Part shown: in pieces, positions 3,113-31,419 of the stretch
Position numbering within the stretch: the first letter of the stretch is position 1
Layout of the letters: each line of letters begins with the position of its first letter
Assembly (NCBI GenBank): GCA_963708025.1
Contig: CAVPSB010000016.1
Coordinates: forward strand, 64,001 to 128,000
Direction: 5' to 3'
Source: an uncultured Candidatus Rokubacteria bacterium
Lineage (GTDB): Bacteria; Methylomirabilota; Methylomirabilia; Rokubacteriales; DASRDR01
Length of the DNA: 64,000 nt
Program-made: the position numbers and the translations under genes
Notes under the pieces: model-generated
What the model saw: the letters and a program-made list of their open reading frames with translations, nothing else
What the model was told of the DNA's origin: nothing
Databases searched by the model: none

Positions 3113-3216
3113 GGGCCGGGTCGAGGACCGAGCAGCCCCCGCAGGCCGAAGGCCGTCCGCCACAGGCCGAAGGCCGTCCGGAGGACGACGGGATGCGACG
3201 GTCATCGGCCCGGCCC
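3113..3216 (+). repeat. Structured repeat family A, copy 1 (short)
   Basis: Terminal IR gggccgggtcga/tcggcccggccc; two aggccgaaggccgtccg units; matches copies at 14023 and 16614. Confidence 0.85.
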
Positions 3217-4643
3217 TATCGATGCTCGCCGACCCGGTGCAGCTTCAGGAGGTTGACCGTACCACGCACCCAGAGCGGCGCGCCGGCCACGATGACCAGG
3301 ATGTCGTTGTAGCGCACCGAGCGGTCGGCCAGAAGGCTGGCCTCGATGGCCGAGACCATCTCGTCGATCGTGGTGAGCCGGGTGATCCCCCGGGGGAAGA
3401 CTCCCCAGTCGAGGGTGAGCCGGCGGCGGACCCGCTCGGAGGGCGCGAACGCGATGATGGGCACCGGCGGGCGATCCTGGGAGATGAGCCGCGCCGTCGA
3501 GCCGGACTGGGTGAAGGCCACGATGGCCCGCGCCTTCAGCTCCTGGGCCGAGAAGGCGGCGGCGTCGGAGATCGCCTGGGGAAACGACACCTCGCCGCGG
3601 CGCGGGCGGTCCATGGAGGCCGGCGGGAAGGCGGCCTCGGTCCGCCGGATGATGCGGTCGAGCGTGCGCACGGCCTCCACCGGGAAGGCTCCGGTCGCCG
3701 ACTCGGCCGACAGCATGACGGCGTCGGTGCCGTCGAGGATGGCGTTGGCGACGTCCGAGACCTCGGCCCGGGTCGGGCGCGGGGCGGAGACCATCGACTC
3801 GAGCATCTGGGTGGCGGTGATGACGGGTGTCCGGGTCAGCCGCGCCTTCCGGATGATCTCCTTCTGGGCCACCGGCACCTCCTCGAGCGGCATCTCGACG
3901 CCGAGGTCGCCCCGGGCCACCATCACCGCGCTGGTCGCGGCCAGGATCTCGTCGAGCCGCCCGAGCGCCTCGGGCCGCTCGAGCTTGGCGACGACTTGGG
4001 TGTCCGATCCGTGCTCGTTGATGAACTCCCGCACCTCCAGGACGTCGGCCGCCGAGCGCACGAAGGAGACGCCGATGTAGTCCACGCCGTGCCGCAGCCC
4101 GAAGGCCAGATCCTCGCGGTCCTTCTCCGTCAGCACGGCCATTCGCACGACGGTTCGCGGCAGGTTCACGCCCTTGTGGTCCTGGATCACCCCACCCGTC
4201 TCGACCCGGCAGACCACGTCGTCGCCCCGAACGTCCTCGACCTCCAGCGCGATGCGCCCGTCGTCGATGAGGACCCGGTCGCCGGGCTTCACGTCTCGGC
4301 AGAAGCCCTCGTAGGAGATGCTCGCCCGCTCCGCCGAGCCCGGTCCCGGCGTGGTCGTCAGGACGAAGGGCCGGCCGCGCCGGAGGGTGGCCGCGCCCCC
4401 CTCGAAGGCACCGAGCCGGATCTTCGGCCCCTGCAGATCCTGGAGGATCGCCAGCGGCTTGCCGATCCGCGCCTCCACCGACCGGATGCGCTCGATGGCC
4501 TGGCCGTGCTCCGCGTGGGTACCGTGGGAGAAGTTGAGCCGCGCCACGTCCATGCCGGCCCGGGCCATCTGCTCGATGATCCCCTCGGCGATGGACGCCG
4601 GCCCCAGTGTGCAGACGATCTTGGTGAGCCGCTCCGCCGTCAC
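3216..4643 (-). CDS. pyk: Pyruvate kinase
   Basis: TKIVCTLGPAS, RLNFSHG, DLQGPKIR, MVARGDLGVE, TQMLESM, PTRAEVSDVANA; GTG start overlaps upstream TGA. Confidence 0.97.
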   Translation of the reverse strand: MTAERLTKIVCTLGPASIAEGIIEQMARAGMDVARLNFSHGTHAEHGQAIERIRSVEARIGKPLAILQDLQGPKIRLGAFEGGAATLRRGRPFVLTTTPGPGSAERASISYEGFCRDVKPGDRVLIDDGRIALEVEDVRGDDVVCRVETGGVIQDHKGVNLPRTVVRMAVLTEKDREDLAFGLRHGVDYIGVSFVRSAADVLEVREFINEHGSDTQVVAKLERPEALGRLDEILAATSAVMVARGDLGVEMPLEEVPVAQKEIIRKARLTRTPVITATQMLESMVSAPRPTRAEVSDVANAILDGTDAVMLSAESATGAFPVEAVRTLDRIIRRTEAAFPPASMDRPRRGEVSFPQAISDAAAFSAQELKARAIVAFTQSGSTARLISQDRPPVPIIAFAPSERVRRRLTLDWGVFPRGITRLTTIDEMVSAIEASLLADRSVRYNDILVIVAGAPLWVRGTVNLLKLHRVGEHR

Positions 4644-5590
4644 CTGGTCGCCTCGGGGGCAACGATGGGGTTGGTCAGGCAGCCGACGCCGTCGATCTCC
4701 GCCTCGACCAGGTCGCCGATCTTGAGGTAGGCGCCGGTCGCCGCGCCGACCCCGGAGGGCGTCCCCGTGGCCAGGATGTCGCCGGGCTCCACCGTCATGC
4801 CGGCGGCCAGGGTGGCCAGCAGGGTCGCGACATCGAAGATCATCTGACCGGTGCTCGCCTCCTGCCGCGTCTGCCCATTGACCCGCAGGCGGATGCCGAG
4901 GGCCTGCGGATCCGGGATCTCGTCGGCGGTGACGAGGACGGGGCCCATCGGGCAGAAGGTGTCGAGCGACTTCCCCTTGAACCACTGCTGGTGCGCCTTC
5001 TGGAGATCGCGCGCGGTCACGTCGTTCAGCACGGTGTAGCCGAAGACGTGCGCGAGCGCCTCCTCGCGGCCGAAGTCGCGCCCCGCGCGCCCCACCACCG
5101 CCGCCAGCTCCACCTCGTAGTCCAGCTCCTGCGTGACCGGGTGGTGGACGATGCCGGCGCCCGGCCCGACGACGGCGGTGGGCGGCTTCGTGAAGAAGAC
5201 CGGCCGCTCCGGCGGAGCCGCGCCGCGCTCGGCGGCGTGCTCGGTGTAGTTCCGACCCATGCAGAAGATGTTCTTCCGAGGCCGCGGAATGGGGGCCAGG
5301 AGCCGCGTCCCGCCGAGGGGCCGGGCGACTTTCCGACGGCGGAGGTCGGCCGGATCCATCCGATCGACCAGTGCCCGGCCGTAGTCCCACACGGCCTGGG
5401 CCCGGGCCCAGACCTCCGGCCCGCCCTCGATCAGCGCCAGCATCGTCGCCGGCACCAGGGCGGCGCGGGCGGGCCGGGCCTCGCGCTGGGCGGCCATGTC
5501 GGCCGACAGCGCGGGAAGGTCCAGCACCGTGTCGTGCCAGACGGCTCCCAGGCGCGGGCTCCTCCCCGACAGGTAGCTCACGAGGTGCAT
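4640..5590 (-). CDS. Fumarylacetoacetate hydrolase family protein
   Basis: CMGRNYTEH, FFTKPPT, DYEVELA, NDVTARDLQ, GKSLDTFCPMGP, TGTPSGVG. Confidence 0.93.
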   Translation of the reverse strand: MHLVSYLSGRSPRLGAVWHDTVLDLPALSADMAAQREARPARAALVPATMLALIEGGPEVWARAQAVWDYGRALVDRMDPADLRRRKVARPLGGTRLLAPIPRPRKNIFCMGRNYTEHAAERGAAPPERPVFFTKPPTAVVGPGAGIVHHPVTQELDYEVELAAVVGRAGRDFGREEALAHVFGYTVLNDVTARDLQKAHQQWFKGKSLDTFCPMGPVLVTADEIPDPQALGIRLRVNGQTRQEASTGQMIFDVATLLATLAAGMTVEPGDILATGTPSGVGAATGAYLKIGDLVEAEIDGVGCLTNPIVAPEATR

Positions 5591-5664
5591 CGGCCCCCCA
5601 TCATACCCAGAATGCGCCCGATTCCTGGCAGTCAACGTTCTCGGCGCGAAAGCCCACGAAGCCC

Positions 5665-6927
5665 TCAGAACGCGCCGCGATCCAGCGAGTAGAAGTTCCC
5701 GTAGATCGACTCGCAGTCGGCCGCGAGGCGCCGCCGGTCTCCGTAGCGGGCGCCGAACCGCGTGAGCGACTGACTGGCCGTATCCGCCCGCGTCCGGCCC
5801 TCCAGCACCAGCTCGCTCAGCCACTCCCCGATGAGGAGCGAGCCGGCGATGCCGATGGCGTTGCAGCCGGCCGCCACGTAGAGACCGTCGATCGTCGGCA
5901 CCGGTCCCAGGAGATACTGGCCGTCGGGCGTGAAGGTCGGCAGGCCGGCGCAGCCCTTGAGGACCGGGGCGTTGTCGAGCGCCGGGAACGCGCGGGTGAG
6001 CCCGGCGGCCAGCTCGTCGAGGACGCCGAGGTCCTTCTCGGTGTGCTCGATCTCGAACGCCGGCGGCAGCTCCGCCATGGAGAAGGCCTTGGGATGGGCC
6101 TCGAAGCCGCCGAGCATGAGTCCGCCCACCTCGGGGCGGATGTAGACGGAGGCGTCGGGGACCCGCACGACCGGCAGGTCCCGGGGCACGGCGTCCATCG
6201 GCGCCGTCGTCCAGTGCTGGTGCCGGAGCGGGACGGTGTCGAAGGCGAGTCCCACCGCCTCGCCGACGCGCTCGACCCAGGGGCCGGCGGCCACCACGAC
6301 CCGGGGGGCGGCCAGCGGGCCGGCGGGCGTGTCGACGCCGCGAACGCGGCCGTCCCGGACGGTGATGCCGGTCACCGGGCGCTGGGTCTCGAACCGGACC
6401 CCGCGCGCCCGCGCGGCCCGCGCGATGGCCATGGCCAGGGTGTACGGCTCGACGTAGCCGTCGCCGGGGATCCACGCCACGCCCTTGACGCCGCCCGGGT
6501 CGAGGAAGGGGACGCGGGCCTGGGCGGCCGTCGGGCTGATCAGCTCGACCGCGAGGCCCCAGCTCCGCGCCTGGGCGACGTGCGTTTCCAGCTCGCGCAG
6601 GCGGCCCTCGGTCAGGGCCACCTTGAGGCTGCCGACCTGGCGGAAGCCGCAGTCCTCCCCGTGCTCGCTGGCCCACCCCTCGAGCCGGCGCACCACGGTC
6701 TGGATCGAGCGGCACATCAGCTCGGAGGCGCGGAGCTGTCCCACCAGTCCGGCCGCCTGGGGCGTGTTCCCGGAGGCCAGCTCCCGCCGCTCGAGGACGA
6801 CCACCTCGGAGAGGCCGGCCCGGGCCAGATGGTAGGCGATCGAGCAACCCCAAATGCCGCCGCCCACCACCACGGCACTCGCCTCCTGCGCCAGACTCGC
6901 GCTCACCGGGTTCCTCGAAGTAGCCAA
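5665..6927 (-). CDS. FAD-dependent oxidoreductase (sarcosine/dimethylglycine dehydrogenase FAD-domain-like)
   Basis: GGGIWG Rossmann motif, SGNTPQAAGL, LMLGGFE, FTPDG; no C-terminal GcvT domain. Confidence 0.85.
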   Translation of the reverse strand: MATSRNPVSASLAQEASAVVVGGGIWGCSIAYHLARAGLSEVVVLERRELASGNTPQAAGLVGQLRASELMCRSIQTVVRRLEGWASEHGEDCGFRQVGSLKVALTEGRLRELETHVAQARSWGLAVELISPTAAQARVPFLDPGGVKGVAWIPGDGYVEPYTLAMAIARAARARGVRFETQRPVTGITVRDGRVRGVDTPAGPLAAPRVVVAAGPWVERVGEAVGLAFDTVPLRHQHWTTAPMDAVPRDLPVVRVPDASVYIRPEVGGLMLGGFEAHPKAFSMAELPPAFEIEHTEKDLGVLDELAAGLTRAFPALDNAPVLKGCAGLPTFTPDGQYLLGPVPTIDGLYVAAGCNAIGIAGSLLIGEWLSELVLEGRTRADTASQSLTRFGARYGDRRRLAADCESIYGNFYSLDRGAF

Positions 6928-6953
6928 GTCATGCCTGACGAGTCAAGTCGCGC

Positions 6954-7135
6954 GGGGGCGGGGCCGAGGAGCGAGCAGCGCTAGGACGCAGGGAGTCGCC
7001 AACCCCAGGCGTACGCCGCGTACCCCGAGGATGGGCGACGACCGAGGACGACCATAGGTCGGGACGGACGCGAGGCCGTAGGCCGAGCGCGTCCCGACCG
7101 AGATGAACGTTGCGAAGCTCATCGGCCCCGCCCCC
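6954..7135 (+). repeat. Structured repeat family A, copy 2 (subtype A2)
   Basis: Terminal IR gggggcggggccga/tcggccccgccccc; near-identical to 31217-31397. Confidence 0.9.
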
Positions 7136-7138
7136 TCC

Positions 7139-7909
7139 CTAGTAGTTGCCCCAGCCGGCGTAGGCGACCCACCCCCCATCCACGTCGATCGAGGTCCCGG
7201 TCACGTAGGCGGAGTCGTCCGAGGCGAGCCACACCGCGGCCGTGGCCACATCCGCCGCCGAGCCGAACCGACCGGCCGGGGTGCGCCGGGTGATGTCCGC
7301 GTCGGTGTAGTCGCCGACCGACTGGTCGTGGACGTCCATCGGGGTCTTGATGTACCCGGGGTTGATGCAGTTCACCCGGACGCCCTGGCGGCCCCACTCG
7401 ACGCCGACGACCTTGGTGAGCCCGATCAGGCCGTGCTTGGAGGCGCAATAGGCAGCCCGCTTCGGCAGCCCGAGCTGACCGAGAATCGAGCCGATGTTGA
7501 TGATCGACCCGGCCCGCCGGGGCAGCATGACCCGGGCCGCCGCCTGGCATCCGAGGAAGGCCCCGGTCAGGTTGAGGTCGAGGGTCCGCCGCCAGTCGGC
7601 CTCGGCCAGCTCCACGGAGGGCGCGATCATGGAGGTCCCGGCGTTGTTCACCATGACGTCGAGCCGGCTCCAGCGCCGGACGGCCTCGTCCACGAGTCGG
7701 TCGACCCCCACCTGGGTGGCGACGTCGGCGGCCACCGCCGCCGCCTCCCCGCCCGGCCGGGTCAGCCGGGCGGCGGCCTCGTCGGCCCGCTTCTGCTCCC
7801 GCGAGTTCACCACCACCCGCGCCCCCTCACGCAGGAAGGCGGCGGCGATCGCTTCCCCGATGCCCATGCTGGAGCCCGTCACGATGGCGACGCGGCCGGC
7901 GAGCTTCAT
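7139..7909 (-). CDS. Short-chain dehydrogenase/reductase
   Basis: TGSSMGIG, NNAG, YCASK, NCINPG, VDGG. Confidence 0.95.
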   Translation of the reverse strand: MKLAGRVAIVTGSSMGIGEAIAAAFLREGARVVVNSREQKRADEAAARLTRPGGEAAAVAADVATQVGVDRLVDEAVRRWSRLDVMVNNAGTSMIAPSVELAEADWRRTLDLNLTGAFLGCQAAARVMLPRRAGSIINIGSILGQLGLPKRAAYCASKHGLIGLTKVVGVEWGRQGVRVNCINPGYIKTPMDVHDQSVGDYTDADITRRTPAGRFGSAADVATAAVWLASDDSAYVTGTSIDVDGGWVAYAGWGNY

Positions 7910-7982
7910 GCCGTCATCTCCCGAGGACCGAAGGGTGTCAGGACGCGACCCCGGCGCGGGGTCCGGGTCGGGGCCCGTCCGA

Positions 7983-8993
7983 TCAGCTGGAAGGCGATGA
8001 AGCGGCCAGCCGCTTGCCGGACAGGCGCGCGATCTCGATCAGCTCGTGGGGCAGGCCGAACCGCACGTCCTCCTCGATCACGTTCAGCTCGCGGACCACC
8101 GGGCTCGTGCGGGACGACAGGTACGCGATCACCTCGCGGACGAGGAACTCGGGGGTGGAGGCTCCGGCCGTCACACCGACGCGGCTCACCCCTTCCAGCC
8201 ACTCCGGCCGGATGTCCCGGACGTCGTTGATCAGGTGGGCGCGGGTGCCCAGCACCGCCGCCACCTCGCGGAGCCGGTTGGCGTTCGAGCTGTTGGCCGC
8301 CCCGAGCACCAGGACGAGGTCCACGCCGGCGGCCAGCTGCTTCACGGCCGCCTGGCGGTTCTGCGTCGCGTAGCAGATGTCGTCCTTCGACGGGCCGACG
8401 ATCGCGGGGAACCGGCGGCGGAGAACCTCCACGATGGCGCGGGTGTCGTCGACCGAGAGGGTCGTCTGGGTGAGATAGGCGACCTTCTCGGGGTTCTCGA
8501 CCTCGAGGCGCTCGGCCTCTCCGACCGAGGCGATGACGACGATCCGCTCGGGCGCCTCGCCGGTGGTGCCGATCACCTCGTCGTGGTCGGCGTGGCCGAC
8601 CAGCACGATGGTGTAGCTCTCCCGGGCGTAGCGCTGCGCTTCCACGTGCACCTTCGTCACCAGCGGACAGGTGGCGTCGATCACCCGGAGCCCGCGAGCC
8701 CGGGCATCGTCCCGCACGGCGGGCGAGATGCCGTGAGCGCTGAAGATCACGGTGGCGCCGGCCGGCACCTCGTCGAGCTCGTCGACGAAGATCGCGCCCT
8801 TCTCGCGCAGAGCCTCGACGACGTGCCGGTTGTGCACGATCTCCCGCCGCACGTAGATGGGACCGCCGACGACGTCGAGCGCCCGCTCCACGACCTCGAT
8901 GGCGCGCTCGACGCCCGCGCAGAAGCCGCGGGGTCCGGCCAGGACGATCTCGTCGAGGGCGGGGCGCGATCCGGACGCTTCGGGCATGCTCAT
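7983..8993 (-). CDS. ispH: 4-hydroxy-3-methylbut-2-enyl diphosphate reductase
   Basis: PRGFCAGVERAI, EIVHN, FSAHG, DATCPLV, QTTLS, DICYATQNRQ, NSSN, TAGASTP. Confidence 0.97.
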   Translation of the reverse strand: MSMPEASGSRPALDEIVLAGPRGFCAGVERAIEVVERALDVVGGPIYVRREIVHNRHVVEALREKGAIFVDELDEVPAGATVIFSAHGISPAVRDDARARGLRVIDATCPLVTKVHVEAQRYARESYTIVLVGHADHDEVIGTTGEAPERIVVIASVGEAERLEVENPEKVAYLTQTTLSVDDTRAIVEVLRRRFPAIVGPSKDDICYATQNRQAAVKQLAAGVDLVLVLGAANSSNANRLREVAAVLGTRAHLINDVRDIRPEWLEGVSRVGVTAGASTPEFLVREVIAYLSSRTSPVVRELNVIEEDVRFGLPHELIEIARLSGKRLAASSPSS

Positions 8994-9066
8994 CCTCCCT
9001 GGCTCACCTGGAGGCGAAACCGCTCCTCAGTATAGGGACCGGCCCCCGGCAACGCAAGGCGCGCGA

Positions 9067-9675
9067 TCACGGGAAGAAGTGGCTCACGCCGAGCATGAAG
9101 AGGCTCGAGTTGATGCCGAGGTTCTGGTCGCACCGGCTGGCGTTCGAGATGTGCTGCACGCGGTAGCCGGCGGTGATGGCGACTCGCTCCGAGACCAGCC
9201 ACAGGAATCCGGGCCCGCCCTCGGCGATGAAGTTCACGTCGCAGCTCGTCTGGCGGATGTCGAACTGGCCATTCAGGATGCCGAGCCCGAGCTCGAAGTA
9301 GGGACGCACCACCCACCCGGCCCCGAAGACCCAGCGCCCGAGGACCGCGAACCCTGCCGCGGTGGCCGAGTCCGGCTTGGCCCTGAAGGTCACGACCGTC
9401 GGCTCGGCCAGCAGCTCGAAGTTCCCGCGCAGCCAGCCGGGGCCGTGCTCGTCGGTGAGGAAGACGCCGAAGTGCGGGAGGGCCTGGAAGCTGTGGACGA
9501 CCGGGCCGGGCTCCGTGTCGACGGTGCTGTGGCTGACCGAGTAGCCCCCGGCGATGTTCAGCTCCGTGGTGCCGAAGCGGAAGCGCTCCTCCGCCGACGA
9601 CACGGGAGCCGGTTGGATCCCGAGCCCCAGCAGGACAGCGCCCAGCCACCCGCCCCACCACCGGAGGTTCCCCAC
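9067..9675 (-). CDS. PagL-like acyloxyacyl hydrolase / lipid A 3-O-deacylase beta-barrel
   Basis: Signal peptide, amphipathic strands, catalytic-type HISNA...NLGIN, C-terminal aromatic. Confidence 0.75.
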   Translation of the reverse strand: MGNLRWWGGWLGAVLLGLGIQPAPVSSAEERFRFGTTELNIAGGYSVSHSTVDTEPGPVVHSFQALPHFGVFLTDEHGPGWLRGNFELLAEPTVVTFRAKPDSATAAGFAVLGRWVFGAGWVVRPYFELGLGILNGQFDIRQTSCDVNFIAEGGPGFLWLVSERVAITAGYRVQHISNASRCDQNLGINSSLFMLGVSHFFP

Positions 9676-9719
9676 GCCCCTCCTCGAACCGGAGGGAGGC
9701 GGAGCCCCCTCCCGAGAGC

Positions 9720-10743
9720 CTACGGGTAGACGAGAACCTTCAGCGCCTCGCCCCGGCTCATCCGGGCCAGCGCGTCGGGCACGTCGGCCAGCCCGACCTC
9801 GCCGGTGAGGAGCGGTGTCGGATCCAGCTCACCGGCGGCCAGCAGTGAGACCGCACGCCGGATGAGCGCCGGCGTGTGGTGGAAGACCCCGAGGAGCCGC
9901 AGCTCCTCGTAGTGCACCCGGCGGGTGTCGAGCCGGATGCCGGTTCCCGGCGCGCAGCCGCCGAAGAACAGCACCGTCCCGCCCTTGTCGGTCGCGGCGA
10001 TCGCCTGCTCCCACGCCTCGGGCCGGCCGGTGGCGTCGATGGCGCAGCGGACCCCGCCCCCGGCCGCACCGCGGACGAGGCCCGCCGGGTCGTCCGTCGC
10101 CGTCACGTCGAGACAGGCGGCGAACCCGAGTCGGGCGGCGACGGCGAGTCGCGGGCCGGCCTTGCCGGCCAGGACGACGTGGGCTCCCGCCCGCTGGGCC
10201 AGGAGCCCGAGCAGCAGTCCGAGCGGACCATGTCCGAAGACGGCGAACCAGTCCCCCGGTCGGATCGCGGCCAGGTCGATCGCGTGGAGGCAGCAGGCGA
10301 CGGGCTCGGCGAAGGCGACCCGGACCACCGGAACGCCGGCGGGAACGGGGACGAGGTTCTTGGCGACCAGCCGGGCCGGCAGCGCGATGTACTCGGCGTA
10401 GGCGCCGTTCACGAACAGGAGGTCGTCGCAGAGGTTGGCCTGACCGCGCCCGCACGGCGGGCAGACGCCGCACGGCGCGGAGTTGGCGGCGACCACCCGG
10501 TCGCCCGGCCGGAATCCCTCGACGCCGGGGCCGAGGCGCGACGATCGTCCCCGCCAGCTCGTGGCCGAACACGGTCGGGAGCTTCGGGATCATGACCGGG
10601 TGGCCGCGCCGCAGCGTCTTGACGTCCGTCCCGCAGGTCAGGGCCACCTCGATGCGCAGGAGCACCTCGCCGGGGCCGGGCTCCGGGACCGGGATGTCCT
10701 CGTAGCGCAGATCACCCGGGCCGTGGAAGACCTGCGCTTTCAC
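9720..10743 (-). CDS. Zinc-dependent alcohol dehydrogenase (+1 frameshift near 10535)
   Basis: TCGTD and FGHE in one frame; CGVCPPC...C and EPVACC in the next; one extra C in GCGCCTCGGC. Confidence 0.85.
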
Positions 10744-11786
10744 TCCGCCATCCCGTCGCCGACCGCCATCGCTCCGCCTTCGACCGTGGCCACGTCGACG
10801 TAGACCTTCAGCGCCTCCAGCCGCTCGGCGAGCAGCACCGCTTCGGTGAGCCGCTCCAGCGGCAGGCGGTGGGAGCAGAGATCGGCGACCTGGATGGCTC
10901 CGGTCACGACGAGCTGGAACGCCTCGGCGAGATCGGCGGGCGACGAGGAGTAGGTCGCGGAGAGCGTCAGCTCCCGGTGGTAGATCTCCCCGATGGGGAG
11001 CGGCCCCTCGCCCTCGCCGACGAAGAGGTGGACCTGGCCGCCGTCCCGCACCCAGCCGAGGGCATCGCGCACCACCTCGGGGGCGCCCACGGTGAGGATG
11101 ACGCAGTCGGCGCCGCGCCGGTCGCTGAGCGGCGCCAGGGCGCCCAGCACGGCTTCCGGCGGCGCCGCCACCGCGCCGAGCGATCGCGCCAGCTCCCGGC
11201 GCGCCGGCAGGAGGTCGGTCCCCACGACCTGGGCGCCGGCCCGGCCCGCGAGCTGGACCAGCAGGCTCCCGATCGCCCCGAGGCCGACCACGACCACGGT
11301 GTCCCCCGGGCCGACGCCGGTCCGGCGGATGGCGCGCAGGCAGCAGGCCAGCGGCTCCGTGAAGGCGGCGACGGCGTCGGGCACCTCGGGGGGCACGCGG
11401 AAGGTGGCGTGCTGGACGTTCTCGCGGGGGACCCGCACGTACTCGGCGAAGCCCCCCGGGTCCAGGTTCGACTCCTTGAACCCCCGGCACATCGAGACGC
11501 TGCCCCGGCGGCAGTAGTGGCAGGCGAAGCAGGGGACATGGTGCGCGACGACAACCCGGTCGCCGACCTCGAAGCCGGTCACGCCCTCCCCCGCCCCGAC
11601 GACATCGCCGACCACCTCGTGACCGAGGACGATCGGCAGCCGGCTGGGGGCGCGAAGCTTGGCCAGGTCGGAGCCGCAGAGACCGCAGCCGCGGACGCGG
11701 ACGAGCAGCTCCCCCGGGCCAATGGTGGGCGTGGGCTGGTACTCGAGACGGATGACCCCGGGCGCCGTGGTCACGGCCACGCGCAT
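10740..11786 (-). CDS. Zinc-dependent alcohol dehydrogenase
   Basis: LCGSD, LGHE, CFACHYC...C, EPLACC, GLGAIG; ATG at 11786. Confidence 0.92.
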   Translation of the reverse strand: MRVAVTTAPGVIRLEYQPTPTIGPGELLVRVRGCGLCGSDLAKLRAPSRLPIVLGHEVVGDVVGAGEGVTGFEVGDRVVVAHHVPCFACHYCRRGSVSMCRGFKESNLDPGGFAEYVRVPRENVQHATFRVPPEVPDAVAAFTEPLACCLRAIRRTGVGPGDTVVVVGLGAIGSLLVQLAGRAGAQVVGTDLLPARRELARSLGAVAAPPEAVLGALAPLSDRRGADCVILTVGAPEVVRDALGWVRDGGQVHLFVGEGEGPLPIGEIYHRELTLSATYSSSPADLAEAFQLVVTGAIQVADLCSHRLPLERLTEAVLLAERLEALKVYVDVATVEGGAMAVGDGMAE

Positions 11787-11923
11787 CTGACCAGAAGGGG
11801 GGGGAGTCCCAACCGCCGGATCGCCTGGACGCCTCGGTGCGTCCCGCCCCTCCGGTGGTGCCCCCCCTTGACCCCCCCGATCTCCACCGTGCGGGGGTCT
11901 CTCGCCGCCGCCAAACCTGGCGG

Positions 11924-12769
11924 TCAAGGGACTTGAGCCCGGAGGTAGACGCCGACCGCGATGGCCAGCTTCCGGGCGGCCGAGAGGCGGATCCGGCGGT
12001 CGAAGACCCGGAAGCGGCGTGCCTCGATGGCCCGGAGCAGCGCGTGGTAGATGACACCCATGATCTCGGCGGCGACCAGCCGCCGCCGGTCCACCCGCGG
12101 CAGCGCGGCCCGGGCCGCCCGGTAGTAGGCGTGCGTGCGGTCGGCCTGGAAGCGCATCAGCTCGAGGTAGGCCTGGGTGGAGCGGCCGCGGAGGAGGTCT
12201 TCCTCCGGATACCCGAAGCGTCGCAGCTCGTCGAGGGGCAGGTAGATCCGCCCACGGTCGCCGTCGGTCTTCAGGTCGCGCATGATGTTGGTGAGCTGGA
12301 GAGCCACCCCCAGGTTCACGGCGTAGTCACGCGCCCGCGGGTCCGTGTACCCGAAGATCTCGATACAGGCCAACCCGACAGCGGCGGCGACCCGGTAGCA
12401 GTACTCGTACAGCTCCTCGAAGCTCGCGTACCGGCGCTTGTCGATGTCCATCTCGACGCCGTCCAGGATGGCCTCGAGGTGCTCCGGCGGAATCGGGAAG
12501 TCCCGCACCACTTCGGCCAGCCGAACGGCGATCGGCTGGGTGGGGCGGCCGCTGTAGACGCGTCGCAGCTCCGCCCGCCACTCGGCCAGGACCCGCCGCT
12601 GATCCCCGACGCTCCCGCCTCCCTGGTCGACCGCGTCGTCCACCGTCCGGCAGAACGCGTAGAGCGCGTACATGGCCTCGCGCTTCCGGCGCGGCAGGAA
12701 GAGAAACGAGTAGTAGAAGTTGGACCCGCTGCGGCGAGTCAGGCTGGCGACCAGCTCGGCTGCGTTCAT
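11924..12769 (-). CDS. hpnD: Presqualene diphosphate synthase (squalene/phytoene synthase family)
   Basis: SGSNFYYSFLFLP, YAFCRTVDDAVD, YCYRVA, ALQLTNIMRD, GRIYLP; hopanoid context; TATAAT at 12810-12815. Confidence 0.88.
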   Translation of the reverse strand: MNAAELVASLTRRSGSNFYYSFLFLPRRKREAMYALYAFCRTVDDAVDQGGGSVGDQRRVLAEWRAELRRVYSGRPTQPIAVRLAEVVRDFPIPPEHLEAILDGVEMDIDKRRYASFEELYEYCYRVAAAVGLACIEIFGYTDPRARDYAVNLGVALQLTNIMRDLKTDGDRGRIYLPLDELRRFGYPEEDLLRGRSTQAYLELMRFQADRTHAYYRAARAALPRVDRRRLVAAEIMGVIYHALLRAIEARRFRVFDRRIRLSAARKLAIAVGVYLRAQVP

Positions 12770-12850
12770 GTGCCGGTGATGAGGCCGGAGCCCCGGCGCT
12801 GCGGAGCCATTATACACCGCGGGTTCGAGCCGGCTCGCTCGACGCCGGGC

Positions 12851-13894
12851 CTACGGGCCGGCCGGTGGCATTCGGCCGGGACGATCCGTCGCTCCCTTCC
12901 GGCGCGCGGCGTAGCCGTGCGCCCAGAACCAGTCCACCGCGTCACGGAGCGCCTCGTCGACGGGCGTCTGGGGGAGGCCGAGCTCCCGGATCGCCTTGGC
13001 CGGATCGAAGAACATCCGCTTCGCCGCCATCCGCACCGCCGTGCGGGAGGCGAGCGGCTCGCGGCCGCTCACCCGCGAGACGCCCTCGAGGACGGCGGCG
13101 ATGGCGAGCGCCGCGCCGTGCGGGAGCCGGACCCGGGGCGCCGGGATGCCGGCGTAGGGCGCGAGCTGCTGGAAGATCGTGGGGAGCCCGAGGTTCCCCG
13201 CCCCGTGCCCCAAGATGTAGCGCTCCCCCACGCGCCCTCGCTCCGCCGCCTGGATGTGGCCGCGGGCCACGTCCCGCACGTGAACGAGGTTCAGGCCGGT
13301 GTCGAGGTAGGCGAGCATCCGGCCCCGGAGGTAGTCGACGAGCATCTTGCCGGTCGGCGTCGGCTTCCAGTCCCACGGCCCGATCGGCGCCGAGGGATTC
13401 ACGATGACCACCGGGAGGCCACGGGCAGCGGCCGCCTCCGCCTCCCGCTCGGCCAGGAACTTGGAGCGCTTGTAGTCGCCCACCATGTCGGCCAGCGCCA
13501 CCGGTGTCGTCTCGGTGCCGGGCGTCCCGTCCGCCGGGATACCGAGCGTCCCGACGCTGGAGGTGTAGACGATCCGCGAGACACCCGCTGACTCGGCGGC
13601 CGCCAGCAGCGCCCGGGTGCCGTCGACGTTCACCCGGTAGAGCAGCGACGGATCGGGCGCCCAGAGCCGATAGTCGGCTGCCACGTGGTACAGCACCCGC
13701 ACGCCGGCCAGGGCGGCCGGCAGGGAGGCCGGATCGAGCAGGTCGCCGGCGACCACGTCGACCGGCAGGCCGGCGATGGCCCGCCGGTCGCTCGTGGGCC
13801 GCGCCAGGACCCGCACCCTCACCCCGTCGGCCACCAGCTCGCGCACGAGATTGGCCCCGACGAACCCCGTCCCCCCCGTCACCAGCACCGTCAC
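12851..13894 (-). CDS. hpnA: Hopanoid-associated sugar epimerase
   Basis: TGGTGFVG, HVAADYRLW, YKRSK, NPSAPIGPWDWKPTPTG, DTGLN. Confidence 0.92.
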   Translation of the reverse strand: MTVLVTGGTGFVGANLVRELVADGVRVRVLARPTSDRRAIAGLPVDVVAGDLLDPASLPAALAGVRVLYHVAADYRLWAPDPSLLYRVNVDGTRALLAAAESAGVSRIVYTSSVGTLGIPADGTPGTETTPVALADMVGDYKRSKFLAEREAEAAAARGLPVVIVNPSAPIGPWDWKPTPTGKMLVDYLRGRMLAYLDTGLNLVHVRDVARGHIQAAERGRVGERYILGHGAGNLGLPTIFQQLAPYAGIPAPRVRLPHGAALAIAAVLEGVSRVSGREPLASRTAVRMAAKRMFFDPAKAIRELGLPQTPVDEALRDAVDWFWAHGYAARRKGATDRPGRMPPAGP

Positions 13895-14022
13895 GCGCCC
13901 ACCCCCCGACCGACTCTATTCACGAAGTCATCATAGCGGCGCGAAGTCTCTCGCCGGACCCGCTCCTCAGAGGAACCCTGACCGCGGACATCATCCGTGG
14001 TTACCGTGTGCGGAAGTTCTCG

Positions 14023-14190
14023 GGTGCGGGGCCGAGGAGCGAGCAGCGCCCACAGGCCGAAGGCCGTCCGACAGACGCAGGGAGTCGCCCACCGGAGGCG
14101 TATACCGCATACGCCGAGGATCGGAGACGACCCCAAAGGCCGAAGGCCGTCCGAACGACGACGCGATGCGACGCTCATCGGGCCCGCACC
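14023..14190 (+). repeat. Structured repeat family A, copy 3 (subtype A1)
   Basis: Terminal IR ggtgcggggccga/tcgggcccgcacc; near-identical to 16614-16779. Confidence 0.9.
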
Positions 14191-14192
14191 AG

Positions 14193-15437
14193 CTAAAACG
14201 GATAGTCGAGGCCGACGAAGACGGCCGGCCCCTCCCGGCTCACGCCGATCTCGATGCGTCCGACGATGCTCGGGGGCGCCAGACCGCGGATCGCGATCCC
14301 CGGAGTCACCTCGAACCCGCTCCCGACGAGCTGGTCCGTCGAGCTGAACACCTTCCCCATGTCCAGGAAGGGCGCGGCCTGGAGCTCCGTCGTCACCCCG
14401 AACAGACGCATGACGAACAGCCGGACCCGACTCTCGAGGTTGGCGAGGACGCGGGCGTCCCCGTAGAAGCGGTTCTGGCTGAACCCCCGGAGGGTCGTGG
14501 CGCCGCCGAGGGTGGGCCGGACCTCGAAAGGAACGTCGCTCCCGGCGCTGATCGCCTCCACCAGCCCCCGGGCGACGAGGACCACGCGCCCTTCCCAGAC
14601 CGGCTGCAGGTACGCCCCTTCGGCGCCCCACTTGATGTAGTCGCTGCTGCTGCCCAGGAGCTCCGCCGACGCTTCCGCGTAGACGGTCAGCGAGACGCCC
14701 CGGGTGGGCGTCGTCTGCGAGTCGCGGTTGTCGTAGGCGAGCGCGACCCGCTGGCTGTGGATGAACGCCCCGTTGACGCCCGGGAGCGTCGGGAAGACGG
14801 TTCCCGTGAACGGCAGCCCCGGGATGCTCCCGCGCAGGACGTCGAACTGCTCCACCGTCTCCGTGAGGGACAGCCGGGTGGTCGGCGTGACGTTGACCCC
14901 GAAGGTCCCGAAGAAGCCCGCGACCTGAAGCGTCATGTTCGTCTCGTTGACCCGCTTCGAGAAGGGCCCCAGGCCGAAGAACCGCACGGTCGAGTCGCGG
15001 TCGAAGAGGAGCTGGACGTCGGAATGGAAGCGCTCGCCGAACAGGGCCAGGTTCCGGTAGTGGAGGTTGAGCCGGCGCTCGATCGTCTCCGAGTACCCTG
15101 CCTCGAAATCGAACCGCTCGCCCACGGTGGGAAATGCGTAGTAGCGGAACGTGCCGGTCCAGCCCCGGAATTCGTTGTAAGTCACCGAGGGGGCGATGAT
15201 GGTGCGCAGCGCCTCGTCCGCCTGGTCCTTCAGGAGGAGGACGGGCAGGACTCCGTAGGTGGCGCCGGCGTTCGGATCGGTGTCGATGGACGGGAGCGGG
15301 ATGAAGGAGTACTCGGCAGCCGCCGTCCGCGGCGGCCACAGCAGCAGGAGGATCAGGAGCGCGAGACCGAGGCGTCTCAGGGCCGGAGCGTCGTGAAGGC
15401 GGCGAGGAAGCGCGCCAGGTGGTCGAGGGCGGTGCAT
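14193..15437 (-). CDS. Omp85/BamA-TamA family outer-membrane barrel, apparently without POTRA domains (start uncertain)
   Basis: Signal peptide, YDNRD, LGGATTLRGF..NRF (lid loop), C-terminal GLDYPF. Confidence 0.8.
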   Translation of the reverse strand: MHRPRPPGALPRRLHDAPALRRLGLALLILLLLWPPRTAAAEYSFIPLPSIDTDPNAGATYGVLPVLLLKDQADEALRTIIAPSVTYNEFRGWTGTFRYYAFPTVGERFDFEAGYSETIERRLNLHYRNLALFGERFHSDVQLLFDRDSTVRFFGLGPFSKRVNETNMTLQVAGFFGTFGVNVTPTTRLSLTETVEQFDVLRGSIPGLPFTGTVFPTLPGVNGAFIHSQRVALAYDNRDSQTTPTRGVSLTVYAEASAELLGSSSDYIKWGAEGAYLQPVWEGRVVLVARGLVEAISAGSDVPFEVRPTLGGATTLRGFSQNRFYGDARVLANLESRVRLFVMRLFGVTTELQAAPFLDMGKVFSSTDQLVGSGFEVTPGIAIRGLAPPSIVGRIEIGVSREGPAVFVGLDYPF

Positions 15438-16162: not shown

Positions 16163-16194
16163 CTCCCCAGCTCCCCTCCCCCACTGCCATCTCT

Positions 16195-16560
16195 TCAGCG
16201 CGCGTGATGGTCATCGTGAGCCCGGCCGCCGGCGGCATCGCCGCCCCTCTCCTGCTCCCTCCGCCGGTGCCACGCAGCATACGACCTGCCGGCAGCCATG
16301 TCCTTGCCGGCGAACCGGATCGTCCGGATCTCGGAGTATGGGATCCGGTGGGGGCCGGTCCCGTCGACATCGAACATCTCGATGAAGGGCTCGGCCGCAT
16401 CGGCGTCGCGGTTGAAGAGGTAGCCGTCCAGCGCGCGGCCGTCCACCGTCACCACCGTCGTGTTGCCCCGATAGTCGAAGGCCAGGTCGATGATGCGCCC
16501 GAGGGGCAGCTCCGAGCTCGGCTGGGGCTGCCAGCCCTCGAGCGAGTGCTCCTCCTCCAC
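16195..16560 (-). CDS. Conserved hypothetical protein
   Basis: AFDYRG.TT...DG..LDGYLFNR...IPYSEI..I.F.GKD.AAG.S; co-oriented between hpnH and hpnG. Confidence 0.75.
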   Translation of the reverse strand: MEEEHSLEGWQPQPSSELPLGRIIDLAFDYRGNTTVVTVDGRALDGYLFNRDADAAEPFIEMFDVDGTGPHRIPYSEIRTIRFAGKDMAAGRSYAAWHRRREQERGGDAAGGRAHDDHHAR

Positions 16561-16613
16561 GACCCTAGGTCCCTTGACGCGTCAAAGTCATGGTAGATGA
16601 GTCACGTTTTCGG

Positions 16614-16779
16614 GGGCGGGGCCGAGGAGCGAGCAGCGCCCAAAGGCCGAAGGCCGTCCGAAGGACGCAGGGAGTCGCCCACCGCAGGCGTACTCCGAGT
16701 ACGCCGAGGATCGGAGACGACCCCAAAGGCCGAAGGCCGTCCGAACGACGACGCGATGCGACGCTCATCGGCCCCGCCC
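16614..16779 (+). repeat. Structured repeat family A, copy 4 (subtype A1)
   Basis: Terminal IR gggcggggccga/tcggccccgccc; GCGTAC-N5-GTACGC hairpin. Confidence 0.9.
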
Positions 16780-16780
16780 G

Positions 16781-17803
16781 CTAGGGGCGCCCGGTCACCG
16801 TCGCCACCACAGTGTCCCGGAATCCCCTCCAGCTCCCGAAGGTCTCGTTCACGGCCGTGGGCTCGAAGCCGCAGTGCACCATGCAGTCCTGGCACTTCGG
16901 GTTCCCACTCCGCCGGCCGTACCGCTCCCACTGCGTCGTCGCCAGGAGCTCCGCGAAGGTCGAGGCGTAGCCCTCCTGCAGGAGGTAGCAGGGGCGTTGC
17001 CAGCCGAACATGTTGAAGGTGGGGTTGCCCCACGGGGTGCAGTCGTACTCGCGCTTGCCCATCAAGAACTGAAGGAAAAGCGGCGACTGGTTGAAGCGCC
17101 AGCCACGCTTCGGGTTCGCGAGGACCCGGGCGAAGAGCTGCTGGGTCTTGGCGCGGCGGAGGAAGTGCTCCTGGTCGGGCGCCTTGGAGTAGCTGTAGCC
17201 GGGGGAGACCATCATCCCCTCGACGCCGAGGCTCACCATCTCGTCGAAGAACTCCCGGACCCGGAGCGGCTGCGCCCCGTCGAACAGCGTCGTGTTGGTG
17301 GTGACGCGAAAGCCTCGGCGGAGCGCTTCCCCGATCGCCTCCACCGCCCGGTCGTACACACCATCCCGGCAAACGGCATCGTCGTGCTCCTCCCGGAGCC
17401 CGTCCATGTGCACGCTGAAGCTCAGATACTTGGAGGGCGTGAAGAGGCCGGCCTCCAGCTTCTCCTTGAGCAGCAGCGCGTTGGTGCAGAGGTAGACGTA
17501 CTTCTTGCGACGGACCAGTTCCTCCACCAGCCGGCCGATCTCGGGATACATGAGGGGCTCGCCCCCCGGGATCGAGACGATGGGCGTCCCGCACTCCTCG
17601 ACGGCCCCCAGGCACTGCTCGACCGTCAGGTGCTTGCGGAGGATCTGGGCCGGGTACTGGATCTTGCCGCAGCCCGCGCAAGCCAGGTTGCAGCGGAACA
17701 GCGGCTCCAGCATGAGGACCAACGGGTAGCGCTTCCGTCCGCGGAGCCGCTGCCTCAGCACGTAGGCAGCCACGGTCCACATCTGGGACACGGGCACACT
17801 CAT
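16781..17803 (-). CDS. hpnH: Adenosyl-hopene transferase (radical SAM)
   Basis: YPLVLMLEPLFRCNLACAGCGK, SIPGGEPL, CTPWGNPT, WQRPCYL, CQDCMVHCGFEPTAV. Confidence 0.96.
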   Translation of the reverse strand: MSVPVSQMWTVAAYVLRQRLRGRKRYPLVLMLEPLFRCNLACAGCGKIQYPAQILRKHLTVEQCLGAVEECGTPIVSIPGGEPLMYPEIGRLVEELVRRKKYVYLCTNALLLKEKLEAGLFTPSKYLSFSVHMDGLREEHDDAVCRDGVYDRAVEAIGEALRRGFRVTTNTTLFDGAQPLRVREFFDEMVSLGVEGMMVSPGYSYSKAPDQEHFLRRAKTQQLFARVLANPKRGWRFNQSPLFLQFLMGKREYDCTPWGNPTFNMFGWQRPCYLLQEGYASTFAELLATTQWERYGRRSGNPKCQDCMVHCGFEPTAVNETFGSWRGFRDTVVATVTGRP

Positions 17804-17867
17804 CCATCCACTCCGGAGGCGGGGAAGCGTGAAGCAGACATCACCGCCAGGGCCTTCCCCGACCTCG

Positions 17868-30277: not shown

Positions 30278-30278
30278 C

Positions 30279-30615: not shown

Positions 30616-30625
30616 GGCATCCTCC

Positions 30626-31006: not shown

Positions 31007-31025
31007 GTTGTCCTCCTTCGCCCCC

Positions 31026-31054
31026 TATGACCCCGCAAGAACGCCCCCGTGAAA
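31026..31054 (-). promoter_or_regulatory. Candidate ECF sigma promoter
   Basis: TTTCAC-N14-GGGGTCATA, same motif found twice upstream of the ECF gene. Confidence 0.6.
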
Positions 31055-31216
31055 CGCTCAGCGGAGAAAAACCGGTGGGAGGAGATGTCGGGCGGAGCCA
31101 ACGCGGGGCGGAGGCCCGCCGAGGCGGGCCAGCGACCGAGGACGAAGCTAGGCGCAGCTAGGCTTCGCCTAGTCGTCAACGTGAGGCGGGCATCCCGAGT
31201 CGAGGGGGGCGAGGAA

Positions 31217-31419
31217 GGCGCGGAGCCGAGGAGCGAGCCGCGCTAGGACGCAGGGAGTCGCCCACCGCAGGCGTATGCCGCATACGCCGAGGATGGGCGA
31301 CGAACCGAGGACGACCATAGGTCGGGACGGACGCGAGGCCGTAGGCCGAGCGCGTCCCGGCCGAGATGGACGTCGCGAAGCTCATCGGCCCCGCGCCCGA
31401 AGCTCATCGGCCCCGCGCC
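31217..31419 (+). repeat. Structured repeat family A, copy 5 (A2) with 22-bp tandem duplication of its end
   Basis: Near-identical to 6954-7135; cgaagctcatcggccccgcgcc at 31376-31397 and 31398-31419. Confidence 0.9.

Follow-up and report, generated by a model that had tools for sequence, protein, structure and literature searches.

Family A, modular hairpin repeats docked on stop codons across an order of soil bacteria, with the features of a non-autonomous mobile element

The BOX elements of Streptococcus pneumoniae and S. suis (boxA-boxB(n)-boxC) are modular repeats whose outer arms pair and whose inner modules are optional and dispensable to the fold; they are non-coding, present in high copy number and often placed at the very 3′ end of a gene. 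In one account (PMC3049150), 36 of the 58 coding sequences (CDSs) overlapping a BOX do so at their 3′ end, where the BOX encodes the stop without evident truncation. IS-derived CTAG/TA MITEs (IS5-, IS982-, IS1182- and IS630-type; Correia/NEMIS, ERIC) carry an inverted repeat that spans the whole element. REP/BIME sequences with RAYT are extragenic palindromes of 20–40 nt in alternating pairs, found after genes in hundreds of copies and forming stop-proximal hairpins; Liang, Rudd and Deutscher are said to have found in 2015 that translation of a gene is reduced by a REP lying no more than about 15 nt from its stop. The attC sites of integrons begin at the stop codon of the cassette gene, run with one polarity, keep their structure while the sequence varies and are active as the bottom (antisense) strand. 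MIRUs of mycobacteria are intercistronic operon repeats that share the orientation of the genes and contact the neighbouring stop and start codons.

Here a stretch of 64,000 nt (the window) was analysed, whose host order consists of uncultured, high-GC, diderm soil bacteria and in which a repeat family, Family A, occurs five times. Family A falls among the known small bacterial repeat elements and is not a separate kind. It shares with BOX all the traits listed above, with CTAG/TA MITEs the element-wide inverted repeat, filled and empty orthologous sites and a presumably co-transcribed position, with REP/BIME the copy number and the stop-proximal hairpins after genes, with attC the stop-codon start, the polarity, the preserved structure and the favoured antisense strand, and with MIRUs the intercistronic position and gene-wise orientation. 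Unlike BOX, with which it has no sequence similarity, it is GC-rich, bears an asymmetric tail with a putative Shine–Dalgarno (SD) motif and is conserved order-wide with covariation. It is longer than REP/BIME (105–330 nt), occurs in one orientation and is without Y1/RAYT; it consists of nested hairpins with no similarity to MIRUs, which are short tandem units with small ORFs; and, unlike attC, it shows no core sites or arrays, has housekeeping neighbours, conserves its internal sequence and lacks association with IntI.

The five window copies lie where they had been predicted, in a single orientation and with shared ends on alignment, and a minus-strand stop codon abuts each one (CTA in four and TCA in one, in forward-strand letters; Table 1). 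A sixth, fragmentary copy proposed at 43899–43922 has only about 13–16 nt in common with the right end and is absent from the BLAST loci on the contig, and was not confirmed. Copies 2 and 4 are extended to the left by a tail of about 45 nt. The reverse complement of the copy 4 tail ends in ...TCAAGGGACCTAG, with the GTG start of the downstream gene 4 nt further, and the right end of copy 5 (cgaagctcatcggccccgcgcc) is present as a tandem duplicate (about 31377–31398 and 31398–31419). For each of the four neighbour genes named, the C-terminus extends to the end of the profile, thus these genes are not truncated.

Table 1. Family A copies in the window and the stop codons adjoining them
Feature	Position	Strand	Description
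Copy 1, short variant	3113..3216	+	Outer inverted repeat GGGCCGGGTCGA/TCGGCCCGGCCC enclosing two small 'S' hairpins
TAG stop of pyruvate kinase	3216..3218	-	Overlaps final base of copy 1 right arm
Copy 2 tail (GGTTCCTCGAAGTAGCCAAGTCATGCCTGACGAGTCAAGTCGCGC)	6909..6953	+	Outer-end CTAG decayed
Copy 2 body	6954..7135	+	Outer stem, B hairpin and C hairpin modules
TAG stop of SDR oxidoreductase gene	7139..7141	-	3 nt past copy 2
Copy 3 tail, remnant only	14014..14022		aagttctcg
Copy 3 body	14023..14190	+	Outer stem GGTGCGGGGCCGA/TCGGGCCCGCACC, modules S-B-S
TAG stop of Omp85-family gene	14193..14195	-	2 nt past copy 3
Copy 4 left CTAG and tail	16565..16613	+	CTAG at 16565..16568, ~45-nt tail at 16569..16613
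Copy 4 body	16614..16779	+	Outer stem, modules S-B-S
CTAG containing hpnH TAG stop	16781..16784	-	TAG at 16781..16783; 1 nt past copy 4
Copy 5	31217..31419	+	B plus C modules
TGA stop of Ada/Ogt-like gene	31404..31406	-	Provided by the CCGATGAGC motif of copy 5 itself, within its duplicated right end

Genome-wide, the family is far more abundant than expected by chance: 314 BLAST loci of 28–275 nt each were found on 34 of the 49 contigs of the 8.17-Mb genome (G000), about 42 kb in total or roughly one per 26 kb (genes were called with an in-house GC3 caller, and the assembly is flagged as 8% contaminated). A 12–14 bp outer inverted repeat encloses optional hairpin modules of 21, 62 and 54 nt, giving length classes of 109, 130, 151, 163, 184 and 205 nt; the module length classes are not multiples of three, and the copies have no coding capacity. 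The predicted swap of internal arms between subtypes corresponds to this modular presence or absence of hairpins. Many copies carry in addition the asymmetric tail, often with CTAG at each end; the tail is present in 106 of 234 anchors of the alpha subfamily and missing from about half of copies; the element ends read CTAG-CGGGCGGGG... and ...CCCCCGAGAAC. In tailed copies the outer inverted repeat is subterminal and the left terminus (the tail) is unlike the right; because the tail makes the ends asymmetric, Family A appears to be without true terminal inverted repeats, and this broken symmetry sets it apart from the CTAG/TA MITEs. That the tail is a separate repeat or an IS end was ruled out, since 40 of 42 tail matches are joined to a body.

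A covariance model of the family found full-length matches in 76 of 101 genomes and in 34 of the 42 genera sampled from the order, the sample taking in the unpublished genomes G055, G038 and G083. No Rfam family was matched in the window at gathering score; with E up to 10, copy 4 had no match and copy 2 four at chance level (8.6–13.5 bits). In a scan of the genome collection with a 19-mer of the left arm, all 31 loci among the matches listed were chance matches of 19–40 nt. Word searches and searches with literal element motifs, in literature outside the subscription journals, found no description of Family A.

The compensatory changes quoted in the original prediction proved real: a set of 40 distinct genomic copies has 88.9% of its cells paired, and both sides change in 22 of the 45 pairs, a value equalled by none of 500 shuffles, with 6–10 pairs in slid controls. 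Furthermore, pairing is kept across genomes through double substitutions in 36 of the 45 pairs. Covariation is thus found both within the genome and across genomes, which supports the proposed structural selection; the CTAG/TA MITEs differ here too, as hairpins that covary across the order would not be expected if the ends alone mattered. Wobble pairs across genomes, read on the plus-orientation strand, are G.T in 83 cases versus A.C in 22, while the signal within G000 alone is weak (176 versus 197, with doubtful pairs still included). In 25 of 31 genomes, helix 3 contains two G.T pairs that become A.C if read in the mRNA. The plus strand folds with z = −5.5 and the opposite strand with −3.4. 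By its wobble asymmetry (G.T versus A.C), it is the antisense strand of the upstream gene, and not the mRNA strand, whose folding is favoured.

A coding frame enters the right end in 205 of 251 anchor-paired copies, and in 198 of these 205 the gene stops at or inside that end: 183 have their stop 5–16 nt past TCGG, 82 of them exactly at +9, and the other 15 end at an element-internal T(G/A)A. Such docking is far more regular than that of BOX, for which it concerns a minority. A frame enters the left end in only 29 of the 251. Likewise, in other genomes all 24 copies with an identifiable incoming frame have its stop within −4 to +8 nt of the match end. The elements are located where genes end, either right on the stop codon or 0–2 nt past it and, in tight operons, between overlapping stop and start; the upstream frame is kept intact, and in about 7% of copies the gene is ended by the element's own TGA or TAA. 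The orientation bias is strong, with the right end facing the incoming gene and orientation agreeing with the direction of the adjacent gene in about 97% of copies, versus just 64% for the sign of GC skew, and replication-strand targeting was rejected on this ground. One exception is an element reversed at the pyk junction in a relative (G002).

The choice of stop codon differs between subfamilies. The main subfamily is located at CTAG and so retains a TAG stop; in alpha copies CTAG stands at both ends and the neighbouring stop is TAG in 104 of 135 cases, versus 30% genome-wide. As in CTAG/TA MITEs, these ends are consistent with a duplicated TA or CTAG, the TAG stop being regenerated. Beta copies, on the other hand, dock also on TGA and TAA (TGA/TAG/TAA = 31/22/5), thus CTAG targeting cannot account for them. 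Nor does a preference for CTAG alone yield 97% stop docking, since no element is found at 1189 CTAG sites lying outside called genes; the tetramer is 9-fold depleted in the genome.

The hpnH, pyk and omp85 junctions were compared in 18 genomes each, and orthologous junctions are filled in some relatives and empty in others. That at hpnH is filled in G000, G002, G005 and G006. In 11 g5 genomes stop and start overlap there as GCGTGATGG, and 2 others of g5, together with G003, have an unoccupied spacer that is short or different. An element occupies the omp85 junction of G000, G001, G005, G006 and G016; in 10 congeners of G016 this junction is empty. Beta copies are flanked by direct repeats of at least 9 nt that hold the stop/start in 12 of 71 cases versus 0.9 expected; they vary from 9 to 15 nt, unlike those of CTAG/TA MITEs, and such variation is unusual for one transposase. 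Alpha copies show no excess of a direct repeat longer than CTAG. The best-matching DNA sequencing runs share 0.27–0.39 of the words. Among four metagenome contig runs, no contig bridging an element and no clean empty-site joint was seen, and of 38 loci that a 20-mer from the 3′ end of hpnH matched in metagenome contigs, none was homologous.

An autonomous partner of the HUH/RAYT or IS110 type had been suggested, and neither was borne out. The Y1 profile PF01797 has no match in G000 (99.67% complete), which rules out RAYT/IS200-IS605. The IS110 copies lie 3–230 kb from the nearest element, with no model match in their flanks. No element ends occur in G000 within 1.5 kb of 5 DDE_Tnp_1, 8 IS110 and 3 Y2-like loci; an IS91-like Y2 partner was dismissed, its three weak matches in G000 being remote from elements. 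The IS1182 DDE domain was not found in G000 by profile search, PF13751 having no match and PF13612 failing to reach the cut-off. No left–right pair of ends in G000 encloses an ORF; loose anchor pairing gave false pairs alone, apart from two composite elements as long as 376 and 580 nt. BOX has ISSpn2 and the CTAG/TA MITEs have their IS, whereas G000 holds no candidate IS with ends matching Family A.

Family A is best explained as a non-coding, non-autonomous mobile DNA element of the MITE/BOX/REP kind, with nested hairpins and gene-end targeting, that has spread through the order (probability roughly 0.7). Hundreds of dispersed copies without coding capacity, filled and empty junctions and direct repeats in a subset bear out the original prediction of a non-autonomous element; together with structural selection this part of it stands, and the HUH/RAYT and IS110 partner falls away; an ncRNA that tunes mRNA processing within operons, as it also proposed, is hypothetical. 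Insertion takes place directly on the stop codon or 0–2 nt after it and preserves the upstream frame. Read in the mRNA sense, the tail probably ends in an AAGGA-like SD motif just ahead of the downstream start (which lies 6–19 nt past the tail AAGG in 27 of 46 alpha copies), and this motif may substitute for the ribosome-binding site displaced by the insertion. If so, one orientation would be harmless and the near-absolute polarity would be explained. Selection may maintain the hairpins on a single strand only, the one that is antisense to the upstream gene; the simplest candidate is the DNA strand on which a putative recombinase acts during movement. On this reading Family A is a clean natural example of a selfish DNA element colonising a gene-dense, operon-rich genome almost harmlessly: landing exactly at the stop leaves both frames intact, and the element apparently supplies the next gene with a ribosome-binding site.

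The same position would suit a host-selected cis-acting RNA in the mRNA (3′-UTR or intercistronic), with mobility merely its route of spread. A terminating ribosome might melt the outer stem, whose far end lies beside the downstream start, and so unmask or re-couple downstream initiation, or the hairpin might stabilise the upstream mRNA or, like stop-proximal REPs, damp its translation. In most copies the stem starts 0–2 nt from the stop, within the footprint of a ribosome at the stop codon; in four genera, 3–40 nt separate the element from the downstream start at the hpnH junction, and the tail-to-start spacing in those 27 of 46 alpha copies also suits this reading. The family persists across the order with pairing conserved, and judging from position the mRNA strand should be transcribed wherever the flanking genes form one operon. 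However, the wobble asymmetry points to the antisense strand, the helix 3 G.T pairs being A.C in mRNA, and the housekeeping junctions are empty in most relatives, thus the module is dispensable. Moreover, the junction sequences show no U-tract past the stem, and a palindromic outer stem cannot by itself account for polarity. A cis-acting RNA is on balance unlikely, though it carries some weight. An intrinsic terminator was rejected by inspection, as the mRNA-sense outer stem is followed by GAGAACUUGACUCAUC without a U-tract. With its order-wide, strand-biased covariation, Family A lends itself to the question of whether such repeats are retained for the chemistry of transposition or for a role as RNA.

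Two further readings take up the antisense strand. Each element could be a small antisense RNA gene, with the left CTAGnnT as a TANNNT-type −10 box that would drive transcription of tail and body antisense to the upstream gene's 3′ end. The left-end TAGnnT is conserved in the G000 logo and in the family members L091, L096, L100 and L116, and the excess of G.T wobble and the plus-strand fold (z −5.5 versus −3.4) fall on the strand that would be transcribed. Yet on the opposite strand these bases spell AAGGA(G), and this accounts equally well for their conservation; the hexamer is not retained in other families of the order (TAGCCC, TAGAAC and TAGCTC in L094, L098, L104 and L105), no −35 box or terminator is seen, and the tail is missing from about half of copies, so that such a gene is very improbable. 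As for attC-like folded recombination sites of an integron-type tyrosine recombinase, suggested by position, polarity, an imperfect palindrome with conserved bulges, the antisense-strand asymmetry and an integron-integrase-like gene at the end of contig C24, they are barely credible: by inspection there are no RYYYAAC/GTTRRRY cores, copies are dispersed beside housekeeping genes at about one per 26 kb and not in cassette arrays, and the integrase model match in G000 is split over two reading frames. An integron attC was rejected, as IntI and the element are not associated across the 101 genomes (element in 29 of 43 with an IntI match versus 47 of 58 without).

The left arm of the beta subfamily bears on how the stop is found. 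Its outer 3–6 bp are complementary to target-derived bases adjoining the stop, which differ between copies, hence the arm is either a guide or rebuilt from the target at each insertion. That the element is no ordinary DDE-type MITE, folding strand-specifically and finding any type of stop by a structure- or pairing-guided mechanism, is a speculative and quite doubtful proposition. On that view the stem, once in place, would bring the stop of the upstream gene and the start of the downstream one together at the base of a single helix, and a terminating ribosome would open it, re-coupling translation over the 100–300 nt insert. If true, structure-guided stop recognition would be a targeting principle of interest.

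Contigs break off at Family A copies, where word depth rises 10–50 fold, and the family fragments metagenome assemblies of this widespread soil lineage; the covariance model is ready for use in masking or typing it.

All five predicted copies of the repeat (family A; copies 1 to 5, from left to right) were recovered at their predicted positions in a single (plus) orientation, with common left and right ends flanking variable interiors, and a minus-strand stop codon adjoins every one of them. In copy 5 the right end is tandemly duplicated (about 22 nt; window 31377-31419), and the incoming gene reads into the outer repeat before it terminates. A further 24-nt 'fragment' predicted at 43899-43922 has only about 13-16 nt in common with the right end and is absent from the BLAST loci of the contig, and was therefore left out of the copy count.

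Minus-strand stop codons at the five copies of the element (window positions)
Feature	Position	Strand	Gene and remarks
Stop beside copy 1	CTA at 3216-3218	-	pyruvate kinase gene
Stop beside copy 2	7139-7141	-	SDR oxidoreductase gene
Stop beside copy 3	14193-14195	-	Omp85-family protein gene
Stop beside copy 4	16781-16783	-	HpnH gene
Stop at copy 5	TGA, 31404-31406	-	Ada/Ogt-like gene; within tandemly duplicated right end

The genome-wide count and orientation check proposed with the original prediction were carried out on the source genome (G000; the window is C16:64001-128000), an assembly of 8.17 Mb, 71% GC and 49 contigs that is flagged as 99.67% complete and 8.18% contaminated. Used as BLASTN queries, the five copies yielded 1415 hits that collapsed to 314 loci, 148 of them plus and 166 minus, with a mean length of 135 nt and a sum of about 42 kb. 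Their polarity relative to the adjacent gene is near-absolute. These loci fall on 34 of the 49 contigs, each of the 15 copy-free contigs being shorter than 53 kb. Rfam, also proposed for comparison, returned no match at gathering score across the window; relaxing the threshold to E up to 10 gave four chance-level matches (8.6-13.5 bits) for copy 2 and none for copy 4.

Read in the direction of the window copies, the element is ordered as [CTAG], tail, left arm, modules, right arm, [CTAG], where the tail is an extension of about 45 nt (nnTCCTTGAAGCGCCAAAGTCATGGCAGATGAGTCAAGTTCTC), the left arm is GGGGGCGGGGCCGAGGAGCGAGCAGCGC and the right arm is GCGATGCGACGCTCATCGGCCCCGCCC(G/C). Different internal arms had been predicted for two subtypes; this reflects the presence or absence of internal modules (hairpin S, 21 nt, at up to three positions; hairpin B, 62 nt; hairpin C, 54 nt), which occur in many combinations. 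Two subfamilies differ in their outer arms. Among 251 anchor-paired G000 copies, 180 carry alpha arms (GAGGAGC.../...GCTCATC) and 71 carry beta arms (GAGA(A/C)CC.../...GG(G/T)TATC), the outer 3-6 bp of the beta stem being copy-specific in sequence with complementarity kept. The alpha length classes (109, 130, 151, 163, 184, 205 and 226 nt) are separated by exactly module units. The tail motif was found at 106 of 234 alpha left anchors and almost never alone, as the left arm follows 40 of 42 tail hits. An S-type hairpin (ATGCCAGAGGCCGAAGGCCGG) also occurs in about four tandem repeats outside any full element (G000:C15:314586-314620), and a second repeat family with G-run/C-run arms (CCCCCAGGTGGGGGGGTCC...GGGACTCCCCCCC; G000:C25:462311-462364 and C32:252238-252319) contains the same C-type inner hairpin; hairpin modules seem to be common to families with different outer frames.

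The predicted covarying pairing was borne out in two alignments. In the first (A2; 40 distinct 129-nt core copies from G000, with the structure hand-drawn from the sequences), standard pairs make up 88.9% of 1799 cells and 22 of 45 pairs changed on both sides (155 cells). None of the five measures was reached in any of 500 shuffles, and sliding the partners by 1-3 columns left 29.6-39.2% pairing and 6-10 double-changed pairs. In the second (A4; 31 full-length copies from 29 other genomes, aligned with a covariance model built from A2 and thus fitted to the model's own structure), 87.5% of cells are paired and 36 of 45 pairs changed on both sides (199 cells), against 12-18 pairs with slid partners; 0 of 500 shuffles reached the observed value. 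As copies and genomes share kinship, the shuffle results are not probabilities. Most copies retain tandem G.A/A.G mismatches in helix 2 (columns 41-45 against 86-92), with 137 G.A cells in A2 and 137 in A4, a pattern that would fit sheared G.A pairs within the fold; a minority of copies have Watson-Crick pairs there instead.

Non-Watson-Crick cells were also compared on the plus-orientation strand. In A4, G.T outnumbers A.C (83 versus 22); 50 of the G.T cells come from two helix 3 pairs at which 25 of 31 copies have G.T, and 17 of the A.C cells from one doubtful pair; without these three pairs the counts are 33 versus 5. The signal within G000 is weak: the outer stems of the 251 copies hold 176 G.T and 197 A.C cells, and about 90 of the latter are at a terminal position that is probably unpaired in copies with the C module. 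The wobble bias points to the strand antisense to the upstream gene, and by our reasoning deamination linked to transcription or replication would predict the opposite bias. We take this as moderate evidence for a selected fold on the antisense strand, as single-stranded DNA or antisense RNA. Single-sequence folding energy discriminates poorly between the strands (z = -5.5 for plus, -3.4 for minus).

At E ≤1e-5, the covariance model found full-length elements in 76 of 101 sampled genomes of the order (a tally that includes the unpublished G055). Among high-quality genomes 52 of 68 have the element, and 34 of 42 genera are represented, with at least 34 matches apiece in several genomes. In several genera the left arm is preceded by CTAG plus tail, whose reverse complement has AAGGAG or AAGGA at its end, then CTAG, in the taxonomic family of the window genome, and ACAAGCG in the other family. 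Identity of core copies is higher within G000 (median 0.876, 90th percentile 0.971) than between genomes (median 0.755), which is consistent with bursts inside lineages.

Docking on stop codons was determined with a home-made gene caller (GC3 above 0.82, GC1 above GC2), which called 6145 genes in G000 with 4003 TGA, 1857 TAG and 285 TAA stops. For 242 of 274 loci of at least 60 nt, the right end faces a gene stop, at most 20 nt away in 183 of the 242 (median 2 nt), and left ends lie that close to a stop in just 7 cases. A frame test independent of the caller, based on an open high-GC3 frame entering the element end, gave a similar polarity: among the 251 paired copies, a frame enters the right end in 205 and the left end in only 29. 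Of the 205 frames, 183 end 5-16 nt past the right-arm TCGG (82 at exactly +9), 15 use a T(G/A)A that the element itself supplies in CCGATGAGC, 3 run further into the element before stopping and 4 had no stop in range; stops of the left-end frames are spread from -80 to -20 nt of the left anchor, around the CTAG of the tail. In other genomes, an incoming frame was identifiable by the criterion used in 24 of 31 copies (7 had none), and all 24 end -4 to +8 nt from the match end (15 TAG, 7 TGA and 2 TAA). Stops beside alpha copies are mostly TAG (104, with 26 TGA and 5 TAA), and those beside beta copies are 31 TGA, 22 TAG and 5 TAA. CTAG itself is 9-fold under-represented in G000 (2458 observed versus 21,639 expected from base composition); 572 occurrences, about a quarter, are called stops, 73 of which adjoin an element.

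The four named neighbour proteins extend to the ends of their NCBIfam profiles, so that insertion is at the native stop rather than within the gene. The sign of GC skew matches orientation for no more than 64% of copies, a share near that of genes (58%), so that the gene rather than the replication fork sets orientation.

Occupied and empty junctions point to movement. At the hpnH junction, compared over 18 genomes of the window's taxonomic family, eleven genomes of one genus (g5) have an overlapping stop/start (...GCGTGATGGAGG...), two further g5 genomes have an unoccupied spacer that is short or different, and G003 has an unrelated 60-nt spacer. It is occupied in G000 (TAG), G002 (TGA), G005 (TAA) and G006 (TGA, a short element between two copies of CGTGAT), with one polarity, differing modules and the next gene starting 3-40 nt beyond the element. 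The omp85 junction is occupied in G000, G001, G005, G006 and G016 and lacks the element in ten other g5 genomes, G002 and G003; G013, also of g5, has a long spacer of unrelated sequence there. The G016 copy is therefore an apparent lineage-specific gain. At the pyk junction, G000 carries copy 1 and G001 is empty; G002 (L197) carries a 129-nt family member exactly between the pyruvate kinase TGA and the ATG with which the following gene starts, in the opposite orientation, an exception to the polarity rule, and in G006 (L196) and G005 (L198) the G-run/C-run hairpin repeat directly follows the pyruvate kinase stop. Direct repeats of at least 9 nt containing the stop, often as TCAT (= ATGA), flank 12 of 71 beta copies, where shuffled pairing would give 0.9; flanking repeats beyond CTAG are not in excess at alpha copies. 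In beta left arms, the copy-specific outer bases are complementary to target bases in the right flanking repeat (for instance, TGGC against GCCA in GCCATCAGT, and GATG against CATC in CATCACGCGT). This complementarity could stem from guide-like pairing or from template switching that extends the palindrome.

Of 70 tailed alpha copies, 46 have an identifiable downstream frame in the same direction, and in 27 of the 46 the first start codon lies 6-19 nt past the AAGG of the tail (copy 4: TCAAGGGACCTAGGGTCGTG). An insertion that splits a tight junction would deprive the downstream gene of its own Shine-Dalgarno motif, for which the tail would supply a replacement, making the observed orientation the harmless one; this role of the tail is inferred. 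On the opposite strand, the bases of the motif also read as TAGnnT, a -10-like hexamer.

A mobilising partner was sought in G000. The suggested flanking HUH (RAYT) or IS110 transposase was not seen there: Y1/RAYT is absent, and the ten IS110 matches lie 3-230 kb from the nearest element. Other matches were three weak Y2, five DDE_Tnp_1 and an IS982 domain below cut-off; the IS1182 DDE domain is absent, no ORF enclosed by an element arm pair was found, and the element model at E up to 1 had no match within about 1.5 kb of 16 transposase loci. An integron-integrase-like gene is located near a contig end (G000:C24:97846-98792, minus strand; L179 1489-2516), matching TIGR02249 positions 1-315 in two pieces (235.9 and 200.4 bits; cut-off 265 bits) in two reading frames, probably through a frameshift near GCCGGAGAGCCGGGTGGGTCGAGCTGCC. 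As the gene is 81 nt from the contig end, any adjoining attI or cassette array would be unassembled. Integron integrases are common across the order, with IntI at E ≤1e-40 in 43 of 101 genomes (35 over the cut-off) and in only 2 of 20 in the window's own taxonomic family. When the two surveys are cross-tabulated, 29 of the 43 genomes with IntI carry the element, but so do 47 of the 58 without (both tallies including the unpublished G038, G055 and G083).

The repeat is genuine and abundant, a structured element of MITE/BOX-like type that occurs across the order. Its closest described analogue is the pneumococcal BOX (PMC3049150), which is modular and MITE-like, has outer boxes that pair and dispensable inner boxes, and supplies the stop codon in 36 of 58 overlapping CDSs, truncation not being evident. 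CTAG/TA-targeting MITEs, REP/BIME, attC sites and MIRUs each resemble the element in some traits and differ in others. Its unusual traits are the very regular docking on all three stop codon types, the near-absolute polarity, the asymmetric tail and the conserved hairpins with strand bias. No published description was found by topic, and no occurrence of its literal motifs in the searchable literature, subscription literature lying outside the scope of both searches.

In four soil-metagenome sequencing runs (X1, X2, X3 and X7), contigs break at element borders (for example, at 6856-6864, 14159/14224 and 16564 within window 2900-17900), and the bins with copies 2 and 4 reach a summed word depth of 640-1900, up from tens. 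The element family is high-copy in these soils and fragments their assemblies.
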